Source: Sulfolobaceae archaeon (GTDB taxonomy: Archaea; Thermoproteota; Thermoprotei_A; Sulfolobales; Sulfolobaceae). Taken from it: a stretch of DNA of 10,016 nucleotides. Location of the stretch: NCBI GenBank assembly GCA_038893355.1, contig JAWARQ010000014.1:1-10016 (forward strand). Direction: 5' to 3'. The notes under the pieces are model-generated. The model was not told the origin of the DNA. It saw only the letters and a program-made list of their open reading frames with translations, and searched no databases. The stretch's first letter is position 1, and every line of letters begins with the position of its first letter. A program made the position numbers and the translations under genes. Positions 1 through 5,432 of this stretch are shown piece after piece.

Positions 1-126
1 TCCTACTGAGTTCTTTCCAGCTAGGTAAGCTATTTTTATGTATGGGTGGTTTGATAGCATTCTAACGTATTCGATTCCAACTAGTCCAGTAGCCCCAAGA
101 ATTGCAGCCTTAAAATTCCTACGCAT
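1..126 (-). CDS. mcr: Malonyl-CoA/succinyl-CoA reductase (aspartate-semialdehyde dehydrogenase family), 5' part; runs off the window start
   Basis: Manual translation from ATG at 126: [42 protein letters not shown]. It has a GATGxVG Rossmann motif and is nearly identical to my recollection of the Sulfolobales Mcr N-terminus ([40 protein letters not shown]). An in-frame stop lies just upstream (132-130). Not in the ORF track. Only 42 codons are visible, so a paralog or true Asd cannot be fully excluded. Confidence 0.85.
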
Positions 127-147
127 ATCTTACTCATTGTCTACAGA

Positions 148-162
148 AATATAAATTTTTTT
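148..162 (-). promoter_or_regulatory. BRE/TATA promoter of mcr (leaderless)
   Basis: Minus strand AAAAAAA-TTTATATT; the TATA octamer (155-148) is followed by 21 nt and then the ATG at 126. Confidence 0.7.
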
Positions 163-171
163 AACAATAAG

Positions 172-185
172 ATATTATAATAGTT
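172..185. promoter_or_regulatory. Candidate transcription-factor site ATATTATAATAGTT (copy 1)
   Basis: Identical 14-mer also at 4333-4346; core TATTATAATA is a perfect palindrome; lies upstream of the mcr TATA box. Confidence 0.5.
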
Positions 186-233
186 CAAGCATGTTCAATC
201 ATGAAAAATAAATATAGTATAAATTGTTTAAAC

Positions 234-1685
234 TTACTTCTCACTTATTAAATTCTTCGCTAGCTCTTCAGCTCTGGAGAAATCATATTCCCTATATAAT
301 GCTATTTTTGAAGCTGCCATTGAACCTTCAGCGTGAATCATCCACCCTAACATGTAACCTGTAAAAGGTCCTCCAGCTAATTCTCTAGCTAGTCTTAATA
401 CTTTGAATCTTTCTTCTCCACTATAATTTGGATTTGCCTTAAGATATTTCTCGATAAACGCTCTTTCCTCCGGATTTTTGAAGTCTTCAGTACTAGGCAA
501 TGTGGAGATTATTCCTCCAGTAATATCTACTAGACCTCTCAAGACATTAACGAAGTTTGTATTAGAATATAATTTACCAATATTAGTATATATTGGATTT
601 GGTATAGCAATTCCTGTACTTTGATCTATTAATGCTTCTAATGCGGCTAATCTTGCCCCCATATACATTATTTCCCTATACAATACTATATCCAATATCT
701 CATCTCTAACATGTGACACATTATCTAAACCGTTGACTTTAGCTACTAGCCTTGCAGTTCCTAGATATAGATCTGCTTCGATTATTCTATAAGAAATTGC
801 AGTAAATCTATGATATAATGCGAAAAGATTAGCTAATTCCCCAGCATATTTCCACTCTTTAAACATGAATACTCTTTCCCAGGGTATAAAAACATCATCT
901 AAAATTGTCATTGTTTCTGCTTCTGCATGCCGTGAACTCAATGGTGCATCTTCTCTTGATGGTAAGCCTTCTATTTCTATCATAGGTCTTACAATAAGTT
1001 TTAAACCTTTAGTATTAGTTGGTATTGCAAATGCTACTGCATAATCCTTATCATCCTCAACCATGGTTCTATATGGTAAGAAGATAATTTCGTTCGATGC
1101 GATACTCTGTGTTGTATGAACTTTTGCACCTCTTACAATTATTCCATCATCTCTTACATCTACTATCCTAACATATAGGTCTTTATCGATTTGCTCATGT
1201 GGCCTTTTGGTTCTATCACCCTTTACATCTGTTTGTGCTACGGCTAATGCTAAATCATTTTTTGCAACGTACTCATAATATCTTTTTACTCTTTCAGTAT
1301 AACCCTTATTATTTTCTGCATCCATCTTTTTAGCTACTATAAATAAGGCATGTAATGCATCACTTCCAATAGCCTGTACTATATTAAATAGACCACCACT
1401 AAGCCTTGTAGTCTCTTGAATTATTTTAGATCTATACCATAAATCTTCTGGGGATTTGCATATTTTGTAAAAGCCACTTATTTCACCTAGAGTAGGATCA
1501 TTTATTACTAGTAGCTTTCTTAACTCTTCATTTACATCCCTTAATTCGTAAAATCTTTTAGCGTGGGTAATAGGTATTGATAGTACGGGATGTGTTGTAA
1601 CATCTTCTACCCTCTTTCCCCTATAATAGATTTCTCTACCATCCCTTAAACTATTAAGGTATTCTTTTGAATTTTTTAAAGTCAT
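234..1685 (-). CDS. 4-hydroxybutyryl-CoA dehydratase / 4-hydroxyphenylacetate 3-hydroxylase (AbfD/HpaB) family flavoprotein lacking Fe-S ligands ('type-2' crenarchaeal homolog)
   Basis: Family motifs YLNSLRDGREIYYRG, QTDVKGDR, DGIIVRGAKVHTT, E257-TMTILDDVFIPWERVF, YHR (H292). The CxxxC position reads NIVQA (101-105), HxxxxxxC reads HRFTAISY, and the whole protein has only one Cys (C76). Confidence 0.9.
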   Translation of the reverse strand: MTLKNSKEYLNSLRDGREIYYRGKRVEDVTTHPVLSIPITHAKRFYELRDVNEELRKLLVINDPTLGEISGFYKICKSPEDLWYRSKIIQETTRLSGGLFNIVQAIGSDALHALFIVAKKMDAENNKGYTERVKRYYEYVAKNDLALAVAQTDVKGDRTKRPHEQIDKDLYVRIVDVRDDGIIVRGAKVHTTQSIASNEIIFLPYRTMVEDDKDYAVAFAIPTNTKGLKLIVRPMIEIEGLPSREDAPLSSRHAEAETMTILDDVFIPWERVFMFKEWKYAGELANLFALYHRFTAISYRIIEADLYLGTARLVAKVNGLDNVSHVRDEILDIVLYREIMYMGARLAALEALIDQSTGIAIPNPIYTNIGKLYSNTNFVNVLRGLVDITGGIISTLPSTEDFKNPEERAFIEKYLKANPNYSGEERFKVLRLARELAGGPFTGYMLGWMIHAEGSMAASKIALYREYDFSRAEELAKNLISEK

Positions 1686-1706
1686 GAATTGGATTATCTA
1701 ATACTA

Positions 1707-1724
1707 CTTAAAAAATTTATATTA
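1707..1724 (-). promoter_or_regulatory. BRE/TATA promoter of the AbfD-like gene
   Basis: Minus strand TAATATAAATTTTTTAAG, then 21 nt, then ATG at 1685. Confidence 0.7.
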
Positions 1725-1731
1725 ATCTCGT

Positions 1732-3180: not shown

Positions 3181-3200
3181 TTTAAAAATATAACTGATTT
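3181..3200 (-). promoter_or_regulatory. Promoter of the ligase gene
   Basis: Minus strand AAATCAG-TTATA-TTTTTAAA (TATA 3188-3181), then 21 nt, then ATG at 3159. Confidence 0.7.
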
Positions 3201-3204
3201 TCAA

Positions 3205-4299
3205 TTACTTTGGAATTATTAAACTTCTGATAACCTCACCTTCTTCAAGTAATTTAACTGCGTCATTTATTTCTTCTAATTTAAACTTACCAGTAATTTG
3301 CTTAGATGGGTTAAACTTACCAGTTCTCACTAATTCTACTAATTTTACCATATCTATTCTAGGTCTTCCCCCATAGCTACCTATTATAGATATTCCATTT
3401 CTCACTATTGTTGAAATCCTTAAGGGAACAGTTAAATATGTTGGTGGTAGTCCTATTAAAATTATTTTACCACCAAGTCTTACCATTTCTATCGCATTCA
3501 TAATTGCATCTTGATTCCCTGATGCCTCTATAACTACATCAGCACCTCTAGATAATATCCTTCTTACCTCCTTTACTGGATCTTGTTGTTTAACATTTAT
3601 GACATCAGTGGCACCAAGTTCTAAAGCCTTATCTAACTTCCACTTTTTAGTACCTAGAGCTATTATCCTACCCGCACCTATAACCCTTAAAAGCTGAATT
3701 ATTGATAATCCTACACCTCCTACACCTATCACCACTACTGTATCGCCAGGCTTAATATTTGCGGAGTTTATTGCACCGTATGCAGTAATTCCAGCGCAAC
3801 CTAATATTGCTAGATCTTCTAATTCTTCATTAGAGGAAAAGTTAACATTAACTAATGCATTTTCATGAACTATTGCATATTCCGCAAATCCCCCACCTAA
3901 AAATGCTCTAACTGGTCTACCATCTTTTAATCTTATTCTTGTAGTACCATCAAACATTGTACCTTTAAGTCTTACTGCTGAAAAGACTTCGCATAAATTT
4001 TCATTACCAGATATACAATTTAAGCACTTACCACATGGGTGAATAAAAGTTGAAATAACTTTATCCCCCTCCTTCACTCTAGTTACATTATTGCCGATTT
4101 TCCTAACTATTCCAGCGATTTCATGGCCCGCTATTACTGGAGTAGGTACTGGTGTAAATCCAAAAAATACATTCAGATCAGAATGACATAACCCAGTAGC
4201 TCTCACTTCTAATAGAACCTCATTTTCTTTAGGCTCCTCTATCTCAACATCTTCTATCCTTAAAGGTTCTTTATAGTTGAATAATACTGCAGCCTTCAT
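3205..4299 (-). CDS. Zn-dependent alcohol dehydrogenase (MDR family), succinic semialdehyde reductase (NADPH)-like
   Basis: Catalytic Zn motifs GLCHSD, GHE, LGCAG; structural Zn CGKCLNC-x7-C; GVGGVG nucleotide fold followed by GTKKWK (no acidic residue, consistent with NADP). Closely resembles my recollection of the Metallosphaera succinic semialdehyde reductase throughout (e.g. [33 protein letters not shown]). Confidence 0.88.
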
Positions 4300-4320
4300 A
4301 GTTTCATTATCTTTAAACTT

Positions 4321-4338
4321 CTTAAAAAGCTTATATTA
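4321..4338 (-). promoter_or_regulatory. BRE/TATA promoter of the Zn-ADH gene
   Basis: Minus strand TAATATAAGCTTTTTAAG, then 21 nt, then ATG at 4299. Confidence 0.7.
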
Positions 4339-4346
4339 TAATAGTT
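4333..4346. promoter_or_regulatory. Candidate transcription-factor site ATATTATAATAGTT (copy 2)
   Basis: Identical to 172-185; lies between the divergent ADH and FNR promoters. Confidence 0.5.
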
Positions 4347-4368
4347 ATATCTTAATAGATCACATTAT

Positions 4369-4388
4369 AAATCAGAAAAATTTAAATA
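4369..4388 (+). promoter_or_regulatory. BRE/TATA promoter of the FNR gene
   Basis: AAATCAG-AAAAA-TTTAAATA (TATA 4381-4388), then 21 nt, then ATG at 4410. Confidence 0.7.
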
Positions 4389-4409
4389 GAATAAATCAGA
4401 TTATAGAAT

Positions 4410-5432
4410 ATGAATGAATATGATATAACGATAATAGGAGGAGGACCCACTGGCTTATTTGCTACTTTTTATGCAGGATTAAGGGATATGAAGACACTCC
4501 TTATTGATGGTCAAGAAGAATTAGGAGGGCAATTAGTTTCAATATATCCAGAAAAATATATTTACGATGTTGGCGGATTTCCTAAAGTTCTGGCTTATGA
4601 ATTAGCTCAAAACTTGATAGAGCAAGCAAAAACATTTTCACCAGAAATAAGAGTAAAGGAGTGGGTTGAACAAATTTCAAAATCAGAGGATAGTTTATGG
4701 TTAATTACTACAGATAAGGGTAATATATATAAATCAAGAACAATACTTATTGCGACAGGAATAGGAAAAATTGTACCTAATAGGCTTGGCGTTAAAGGGG
4801 AAATAGAATATGAAGGGAGGGGTGTATATTATAGTGTGAAAAGAAAGAAGGATTTTGAAGGAAAGGATGTCCTGATAGTAGGTGGTGGTGATTCTGCAGT
4901 AGATTGGGCTTTAAATTTATCCACAATTGCAAATTCCGTGACATTAATACATAGAAGGGATAAATTTAGAGCACATGAAAGGAGTGTTACAGAATTATTT
5001 AAGGTCGCTAAGGTCTATCTATGGCATGAATTAAAGGAAATTATAGGAGATGGAAAGTCGGTAAAAAAAGCTATAATCTTTGATAATAGAACAAAGGAGG
5101 AAAAGGTTTTAGATGTAGATGCAGTTATAATAAGTATAGGTCATAAGGGCGATCTAGGAAATTTACCAAAATGGGGAGTTAATATGAAGGGTAGAGAGGT
5201 AATAGTTAACAGTAAAATGGAAACAAATCTTCCAGGGGTATATGCTGCGGGAGATATAGCTTATCAAGAAGGTCTACCGAAAATGAGCTTAATAGCTATC
5301 GGCTTTTCTCAGGCTGCAGTTGCCATAAGTATGGCTAAGAAGTATATAAATCCAGATTCATCAGCCTTTGCGGGTCATAGTTCAGAAATAATGAAGACTA
5401 AGATTAATAATAGTAATTTAAAATTTGAATAA
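4410..5432 (+). CDS. Ferredoxin-NADP(+) reductase, thioredoxin-reductase fold (YumC type)
   Basis: FAD motif [27 protein letters not shown] motifs GGGDSA and [17 protein letters not shown]-terminal GHSS. The redox CxxC of true TrxB is absent (region reads GRGVYYSVK). Confidence 0.88.

Follow-up and report, generated by a model that had tools for sequence, protein, structure and literature searches.

Two archaeal CO2-fixation cycles have 4-hydroxybutyryl-CoA dehydratase (AbfD or 4HBD) as their signature enzyme, which also represents their most oxygen-sensitive, slow, and abundant step. For the 3-hydroxypropionate/4-hydroxybutyrate (HP/HB) cycle in Metallosphaera sedula, the pathway genes are given as Msed_0709, Msed_1424, Msed_1422 (Berg 2007) or Msed_0406 (Loder 2016), and Msed_1220/Msed_1321, with Msed_1422 to Msed_1426 forming a cluster (PMC7078158; Fig. 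2B legend). Table 1 of the same source records Msed_1422 as an "identification by partial purification" that is up-regulated, gives no specific activity for it, and notes that later work favored Msed_0406; this ligase candidate and the Cys-less AbfD homolog of M. sedula are both listed there as "ND," and Msed_1220 is described as not regulated by autotrophy. Here, we describe a related cluster in a Sulfolobaceae-like archaeon (assembly of 17 contigs, 1.40 Mb, 83.8% complete, 33% GC). The window, by which we mean the whole stretch analyzed, is the first 10,016 nt of its contig C14, and the genes studied lie at positions 1 to 5432 (Table 1). ORF families were assigned by Pfam and NCBIfam profile searches, which recovered the four families and the divergent gene named in a preliminary description of the sequence: an alcohol dehydrogenase (ADH), a CoA ligase, an AbfD-like protein, and the 5' end of a malonyl/succinyl-CoA reductase (Mcr) type gene on the minus strand, and a ferredoxin-NADP+ reductase (FNR) type gene on the plus strand. 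The succinic semialdehyde reductase and ligase of M. sedula (66% and 79% identical to those of the window) are likewise clustered, and its reductase belongs to the same family. The window differs in that the ADH gene abuts the ligase gene with no Msed_1423-type dehydrogenase between them, and in that copies of Mcr and FNR join the cluster, with a Cys-less AbfD inside it, whereas Msed_0709 and Msed_1220 are located elsewhere, judging by their locus numbers.

The cluster is thus a known pathway module in a variant form, in which a Cys-less paralog lies within a 4-hydroxybutyrate cluster. Such paralogs are called type-2 below and the canonical Cys-containing enzymes type-1, names that reportedly come from the papers of Berg and Fuchs. 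We tentatively favor the view, at a confidence that approaches but does not reach an even chance, that the cluster is a compact variant of the 4-hydroxybutyrate branch of the HP/HB cycle and that its type-2 protein is an FAD-only acyl-CoA enzyme rather than a radical dehydratase. The extra Mcr copy would convert succinyl-CoA to succinic semialdehyde, the succinic semialdehyde reductase would reduce this to 4-hydroxybutyrate, and the ligase would yield 4-hydroxybutyryl-CoA, with the extra FNR plausibly linking ferredoxin to the NADPH used by both reductases. The type-2 protein would most likely act on a short acyl-CoA from the upstream CoA ligase, possibly as a vinylacetyl-CoA/crotonyl-CoA isomerase or in related enoyl-CoA chemistry, and its gene would have been recruited secondarily to the cluster. 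The data show gene identities, residue losses, synteny, and distribution; all of these activities, the direction in which the FNR works, and the compound on which the type-2 protein acts are inferred.

The AbfD-like protein matched the solved dehydratases 6vjr and 1u8v at E values of 1.3e-67 and 5.9e-66, compared to 9e-46 for HpaB, and its AF2 model (pLDDT, 86.4) aligned to both dehydratases with a Foldseek TM score of 0.91, placing it in the AbfD/HpaB fold. Eight residues have been listed as required for dehydration, namely, C99, C103, C299, H292, T190, E257, Y296, and E455 (bioRxiv 10.1101/2020.02.05.935528). We compared these positions, in Clostridium aminobutyricum numbering, in a HMMER alignment to 1u8v and in an alignment of 31 sequences. 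The prior suggestion that this homolog lacks an Fe-S cluster was borne out: of the four [4Fe-4S] ligands, C99 is replaced by Leu, C103 by Ala (given as A105 for this protein), and C299 by Tyr, and H292 is retained, whereas all four are kept in 17/17 type-1 proteins of relatives. Y296 and E455 have changed to Ala and Trp, the latter at a position that varies across the Cys-less clade, while T190 (given as T192 for this protein), the Thr that contacts the flavin, and E257 are retained. The cluster loop reads GLFNIVQAIGSDA in the window protein, compared to GACFQ--RCVGxDA in all 17 type-1 proteins of relatives, and the type-2 form of this loop, GxFNIxQAIGSDA, contains a two-residue insertion. Elsewhere, YHRFTAISYR stands for YHRQGYGGCK and HAEGS for HGAGS. 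A new conserved Glu occupies the A460 position, and Y299, R/K300, and E453 are invariant or almost so across the Cys-less branch. Given that three of the four ligands are lost, the AbfD-like protein cannot hold a [4Fe-4S] cluster and, thus, is not a canonical radical dehydratase.

These changes belong to a widespread pattern. We defined the type-2 signature as non-Cys residues at positions 99 and 103 together with T190, E257, H292, A296, Y299, K/R300, and E460; the window protein reads L A T E H A Y R E at these positions, and the signature was found, with minor variants, in 12/12 Sulfolobaceae type-2 proteins and in 80/80 fetched loci. The latter (L048 to L127) came from a pattern scan of genome contigs that matched at least 600 stretches and represent distant members rather than close Sulfolobaceae; they span Binatia, Poribacteria, Dehalococcoidia, Acidobacteriota, Thermoplasmata, and other groups, and most of the bacterial members carry Glu at the C103 position. 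The conservation of the signature across Bacteria and Archaea indicates a selected, Fe-S-free branch and not a decayed gene. A protein database search returned 3,018 proteins at an E value of ≤1e-60, a count that includes other branches of the family. Close homologs carry the source name "4-hydroxybutyryl-CoA dehydratase," and some relatives are named "aromatic ring hydroxylase," although the window protein scored 216.2 bits against the NCBIfam HpaB equivalog TIGR02309, for which the cut-off is 480.2. One preprint states that crenarchaeal 4HBD "forms two distinct groups." In a FastTree phylogeny rooted on type-1, the window protein grouped with an 85%-identical metagenome protein, G024, G020, and an Aigarchaeota protein, while the other Sulfolobaceae type-2 copies and Vulcanisaeta formed a separate subclade. 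A metagenome scan for close type-2 relatives returned one locus (L135), a 152-residue remnant with no cluster genes. The type-2 gene of G010 (C1:2304909-2306314; L047) is split into two frames that cover residues 4 to 392 and 389 to 478 and is probably frameshifted.

The ADH and the ligase are orthologs of regular members of the pathway. The M. sedula protein to which the ADH is 66% identical is named succinate semialdehyde reductase (NADPH) by both NCBI and UniRef, and each of 20 family relatives holds one ortholog at 62 to 73% identity; together with the Zn-ADH domains, this orthology places the ADH with the succinic semialdehyde reductases of the Msed_1424 type. The ligase shares 79% identity with a protein of M. 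sedula named "phenylacetate--CoA ligase family protein" and 67% with one of Ignicoccus hospitalis, has single orthologs in 22 of 40 relatives (70 to 81% identity), and lies within 1.3 kb of the ADH gene in 11 of the 20 family relatives that hold both. Some of its homologs are named 4-hydroxybutyrate-CoA ligase by JGI, and its scores fall far below the PaaK equivalog cut-offs (TIGR02155, 126.1 versus 646.3 bits; NF041878, 142.3 versus 700 bits). The closest solved structure is 2-hydroxyisobutyryl-CoA synthetase (6hdw), and the range of this ligase family therefore extends to small hydroxy acids as substrates for activation. On the strength of its orthology and its linkage to succinic semialdehyde reductase and AbfD genes, we consider the ligase to be of the Msed_1422 type, the proposed 4-hydroxybutyrate-CoA ligase; recombinant Msed_1422 is reportedly inactive, and the preliminary description gave both this ligase candidate and the Cys-less AbfD homologs as reportedly inactive. 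The preliminary description had regarded the cluster as a "shadow" module of orphans. Given that the ADH and ligase are single-copy orthologs of M. sedula HP/HB genes, they are not shadow copies. An identical database protein of the ligase (P0001) has 475 aa, which indicates that translation probably starts at the ATG at position 3159; consistent with the TTG at 3204 being too far upstream, ligase matches in G004, G011, G013, G016, and other genomes contain one or two stops within the first ~15 query residues. The divergent gene product has no CxxC in its translation and is closer to thioredoxin reductase (TrxR)-like FNRs (2.9e-95 to 1.1e-60, including 2zbw, 6gas, and 3lzw at 3e-95 to 1.5e-80) than to true TrxR (3.9e-37); it is therefore predicted to be a TrxR-like FNR with the TrxR fold and no redox CxxC. 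Its paralog, 74% identical, is located at C4:59607-60596.

Given that the window opens contig C14, only 126 nt of its mcr gene are on the contig. The 42-aa fragment shares 81 to 83% identity with each of the two Mcr copies of G009. The end of contig C3 carries an identical stretch of 127 nt, which starts about 2 nt ahead of the mcr ATG and lies behind a different upstream region, and Logan unitigs of X1, the probable source sample, and X2, an independent hot-spring sample, extend mcr by 323 nt beyond the contig. The 450-nt unitig that covers window positions 1 to 127 had a depth of 36.1 in X1 and 12.1 in X2, which is 2 to 3 times that of the window's own unitig (12 and 5.5, respectively); the C3 branch had a depth of 10.8. 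Both junctions were at approximately single-copy depth. The genome therefore carries two or more mcr genes that share an identical 5' part, which explains the assembly break at the contig start, and the second mcr that the preliminary description proposed to look for does exist. One mcr copy does follow the AbfD-like gene. Neighbors shared with G009 identify the end of C3 and the start of C4 as the two halves of a "primary" mcr locus, and the only assembled mcr 3' part, on C4, was assigned by synteny to that other copy and not to the window's.

We surveyed 350 other genomes of the class and 46 other genomes of the family (47 with the window genome); because related genomes are kin, the co-occurrence counts overstate independence. 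Among the 46, ligase and type-1 occurred together in 41, type-1 alone in 1, neither in 4, and ligase alone in none. The ligase gene is immediately beside type-1 in 8 genomes from 3 genera, with type-1 directly downstream in G005, G011, G021, and G338. The proposed tie between the ligase and AbfD-family genes was thus confirmed, and this strict co-occurrence and frequent adjacency argue that the Msed_1422-type ligase belongs to the pathway in vivo. The same support did not extend to the type-2 gene. Type-2 was found in 41 and ligase in 50 of the 350 genomes; 19 of the 41 type-2 genomes have the ligase and 22 do not, and the two genes are neighbors in only one of them, G024, a member of another genus whose ligase and type-2 proteins are 71% and 77% identical to those of the window. 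In G332, 7.6 kb that include a transposase separate the two. G001, G010, and G020 have type-2 with neither ligase nor type-1, and G010 also lacks Mcr. In G022 (C10:63754-69906; L043), type-1 and type-2 lie ~3.3 kb apart on one strand, and an AMP-forming acyl-CoA synthetase gene overlaps the type-2 start.

The type-2 loci of relatives are mostly placed in a different context. In 9/11 examined, the gene lies among acyl-CoA catabolic genes and not HP/HB genes. The neighbors in these 11 loci include an AMP-forming acyl-CoA synthetase in 6 (directly upstream or overlapping in 3), an acyl-CoA dehydrogenase in 6, a 3-hydroxyacyl-CoA dehydrogenase with or without a hydratase in 7, TetR regulators in 5, short-chain dehydrogenases/reductases (SDRs) in 5, and esterases, aldehyde dehydrogenase, MaoC, and a family III CoA-transferase; the subclade-A copies of G056/G057 have uninformative neighbors (UbiD_C, GAF, HTH, and phosphorylase). 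Bacterial and Thermoplasmata members are also flanked by CoA ligases, an SDR, and an enoyl-CoA hydratase. Clustering the neighbors of the 80 distant loci gave lower bounds, given that our ORF prediction copes poorly with GC-rich sequence and recovered the type-2 ORF itself in just 64/80: at least 22 loci with SDRs, 11 with 3-hydroxyacyl-CoA dehydrogenase/hydratase, 3 with PaaK-like ligases, and 4 with AMP-ligases. Overall, type-2 is found beside three kinds of ligase, namely, PaaK-type (window and G024), other PaaK-family (L055), and AMP-forming (L043 to L045 and L051). We infer from this distribution, from these catabolic neighbors, and from the lack of autotrophic regulation listed for Msed_1220 that type-2 proteins work with CoA esters outside the HP/HB cycle. 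Two metagenome type-2 proteins (85% and 73% identical) have "longest contig" values, 4496 and 7493, that equal those of succinic semialdehyde reductase homologs; this match of recorded lengths hints at the same cluster in other organisms. Of the interpretation offered in the preliminary description, the gene families, the loss of the cysteines, and the second mcr have held, while the orphan status of the genes, the conserved adjacency of ligase and type-2, and the tie of type-2 to the HP/HB reductases have not.

The HP/HB genes found in the window genome are the mcr pieces, the ADH, the ligase, carboxyltransferase, and methylmalonyl-CoA mutase. A type-1 AbfD was not found in this 83.8%-complete genome with the window protein, six type-1 queries, or the family survey; among the 47 family genomes, it alone combines the ligase with no detectable type-1. 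Acryloyl-CoA reductase was likewise not found (best score, 175.6 bits against a cut-off of 500, with 557 to 603 in 5/5 relatives), nor was a Msed_1423-type 3-hydroxybutyryl-CoA dehydrogenase (best match, 40 to 42% identical, compared to 68% between the orthologs of two relatives). The slot that holds type-1 in G009, after the orthologs of its genes F9 and F10, has no AbfD in the 616 nt up to the C4 end; this segment (C4:185961-186576) is GC-rich, compared to 31% GC for the contig, and may be a repeat or the end of a mobile element. These absences are provisional given that 16% of the genome is missing, yet chance alone is unlikely to account for three unlinked misses at once.

Several of these observations weigh against the FAD-only acyl-CoA enzyme that we favor. 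The genome is the one in the family that holds the ligase without a detectable canonical AbfD, and if type-1 is truly absent, the product of the ligase would have no further use unless type-2 accepted it. Type-2 also occupies the place directly downstream of the ligase that type-1 holds in four relatives. The fatty-acid-cluster context of other type-2 genes may not transfer to the window protein, given that it belongs to a distinct subclade. AbfD itself has an air-stable isomerase activity, and the isomerase chemistry proposed here is a guess drawn by analogy from that second activity. Our literature searches found no paper that characterizes the activity of a Cys-less member, and we know of none. 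The main rival takes up these same points. It holds that the Cys-less paralog of this subclade has replaced the [4Fe-4S] radical enzyme and is the module's Fe-S-independent, oxygen-insensitive 4-hydroxybutyryl-CoA dehydratase, in which Tyr (C299), Arg/Lys (K300), and Glu (A460), together with FAD, H292, and E257, replace the Lewis-acid iron. With the ligase, it would form an Fe-S-free, oxygen-insensitive route from 4-hydroxybutyrate to crotonyl-CoA, and the cluster alone would carry succinyl-CoA to crotonyl-CoA. We regard this as unlikely but worth serious consideration. It would account for the ligase-then-AbfD order, which equals the ligase-then-type-1 order of G005, G011, G021, and G338, for the ligase without type-1, and for the missing AbfD in the G009-type slot at the C4 end; the near invariance of Y299, R/K300, and E453 is as expected for a remodeled active site under selection, and the two metagenome proteins hint at a similar cluster elsewhere. 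However, the incompleteness of the genome tempers the argument from absence, and acryloyl-CoA reductase and the Msed_1423-type dehydrogenase were also not found, such that the pathway may be incomplete or poorly assembled. Moreover, G024 has the same ligase-type-2 pair and keeps an intact type-1, five of the eight residues needed for dehydration are lost, and members of the clade often occur in organisms that lack the ligase, Mcr, or type-1.

We also considered that the adjacency may be meaningless, with a type-2 gene under its own promoter having landed between ligase and mcr2 by rearrangement in an IS-rich genome and doing the same acyl-CoA catabolic job as in other genera. The pair recurs in just 1 of the 41 other type-2 genomes, a TATA-like motif precedes each gene, a broken ISC1217 transposase stands at the end of the contig and a GC-rich repeat at that of C4, and in G009/G019 the ligase is followed directly by Mcr2 with no AbfD between. 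Even so, the one recurrence, in G024, is in another genus (71% and 77% identity), type-2 lies directly beside three different kinds of CoA ligase, and TATA-like motifs carry little weight given that the genome is AT-rich (33% GC). Such a chance placement seems to us unlikely. An ordinary aromatic route, in which a phenylacetate-CoA ligase and an HpaB-type hydroxylase have nothing to do with the reductases, is suggested by the Pfam names HpaB_N/HpaB, by PaaK and HpaB-1 as the best NCBIfam matches, and by relatives named "aromatic ring hydroxylase." We rejected this pairing as highly improbable, given that the profile scores fall far below their cut-offs, that the flavoprotein is nearer to AbfD (1e-67) than to HpaB, that C6 carries a separate HpaB-like gene and C2 another PaaK-like ligase, and that the ligase co-occurs with type-1 AbfD and not with aromatic genes; the preliminary description had likewise set the pair apart from an ordinary phenylacetate ligase and HpaB hydroxylase.

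The other features of the window and its surroundings are as follows. At C6:66459-68878 (L002 548-2967), the true HpaB-like gene, whose product shares 29% identity with the window protein, lies directly behind a 315-aa ORF likened, from its translation alone, to a glyoxalase-fold extradiol dioxygenase, with a CoA-ligase C terminus upstream; these genes resemble a set for aromatic degradation that is distinct from the window. Direct reading placed TATA-like motifs upstream of each gene of the cluster. A sigma-70/terminator scan, which is ill-suited to archaea, gave 22 promoter-like sites (shuffle mean, 26.4) and 0 terminators, and ~3/100 of the data of metatranscriptome X16 gave 0 reads on the stretch, a depth too shallow to bear on expression or cotranscription. 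Beyond the FNR gene, the window encodes a CBS protein, a PTO1314-family radical SAM protein, an amino-acid permease, and an ISC1217 transposase that looks broken; the contig ends shortly after, and an IS copy probably caused the assembly break there. A CBS protein 33% identical to that of the window also abuts the ADH in G024 (L037 14227-14616).

Table 1. Features of the window, with positions numbered from the first nucleotide of contig C14
Feature	Positions	Strand	Details
Putative Mcr (malonyl/succinyl-CoA reductase) paralog, 5' end	1-126	-	42 codons; Semialdhyde_dh N-terminus, PF01118 E 1.4e-8
Intergenic region, TATA-like TTTATAT at 149-155	127-233	-	23-29 nt upstream of the mcr ATG; read directly
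Cys-less (type-2) AbfD-family flavoprotein, 483 aa	234-1685	-	HpaB_N + HpaB
PaaK-family CoA ligase, ortholog of the Msed_1422 type	1732-3204	-	490 aa from TTG; AMP-binding + AMP-binding_C_2
Zn-dependent ADH, succinic semialdehyde reductase (NADPH) ortholog, 364 aa	3205-4299	-	ADH_N + ADH_zinc_N
Divergent ADH/FNR spacer, 110 nt, AT-rich	4300-4409	.	Read directly
Predicted TrxR-like ferredoxin-NADP+ reductase, 340 aa, second genome copy	4410-5432	+	Pyr_redox_2
CBS-pair protein, Cys-rich C-terminal tail (CPVCG...CGCG)	5522-6010		
Radical SAM protein, PTO1314 family	6132-7160		TIGR03961, 616 bits (cut-off 306); DUF3463 C-terminal domain
ISC1217-family transposase, two ORFs (122 + 97 aa)	9165-9841		Profile positions 2-125 and 135-230 of 327

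A genome with the reductase, the succinic semialdehyde reductase, and the ligase, but with only a Cys-less paralog in the dehydratase slot, represents a natural test case for an Fe-S-free version of this step. If such a replacement is real, part of the "abfD" branch, which is very large among aerobic Bacteria and Archaea, would perform dehydratase chemistry without the cluster. Given that all 80 loci carry the Cys-less signature and that homologs bear dehydratase names, annotation of these genes as a marker of autotrophy can mislead.

In comparison with known systems, the window protein shares superfamily and Pfam domains with the HpaB 4-hydroxyphenylacetate 3-monooxygenases (2yyg and relatives; TM, 0.86 to 0.90) but matches them at 9e-46, below the NCBIfam cut-off, and has Q104 and S108 in place of the Arg and Tyr of the HpaB "RSPDY" motif, which have a role in HpaB. 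It shares the fold of the AbfD/4HBD enzymes of C. aminobutyricum (1u8v) and Nitrosopumilus maritimus (6vjr) at ~30% identity and keeps T190, E257, and H292 but differs in having no Cys ligands, in the loss of Y296 and E455, in the insertion in the cluster loop, and in the Glu at A460. At the level of the cluster, the dicarboxylate/4-hydroxybutyrate genes of Thermoproteus listed in Table 2 of PMC3189178 (Tneu_0418-0422 and TTX_1100-1107) bring together succinyl-CoA reductase, succinic semialdehyde reductase, 4-hydroxybutyrate-CoA ligase, and dehydratase, which is like the four-step logic of the window. The closest layout to the window is that of genus g10 (G009 and G019), which has type-1 AbfD, FNR on the minus strand, and ADH-ligase-Mcr2 on the plus strand. 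The Thermoproteus cluster presumably draws in part on other enzyme families and has a dehydratase that we take to be canonical. The divergent FNR-ADH pair of the window recurs in genus g10, with a 120-nt spacer, as does the ADH-ligase-Mcr order. G009 and G019 also hold, elsewhere, another Mcr (73% identical to Mcr2) and another FNR, just as the window genome has second copies. These two genomes differ from the window in that a canonical Cys-containing AbfD flanks the FNR gene and the ligase is followed directly by Mcr2, while their type-2 gene lies ~0.9 Mb away in an acyl-CoA catabolic cluster.

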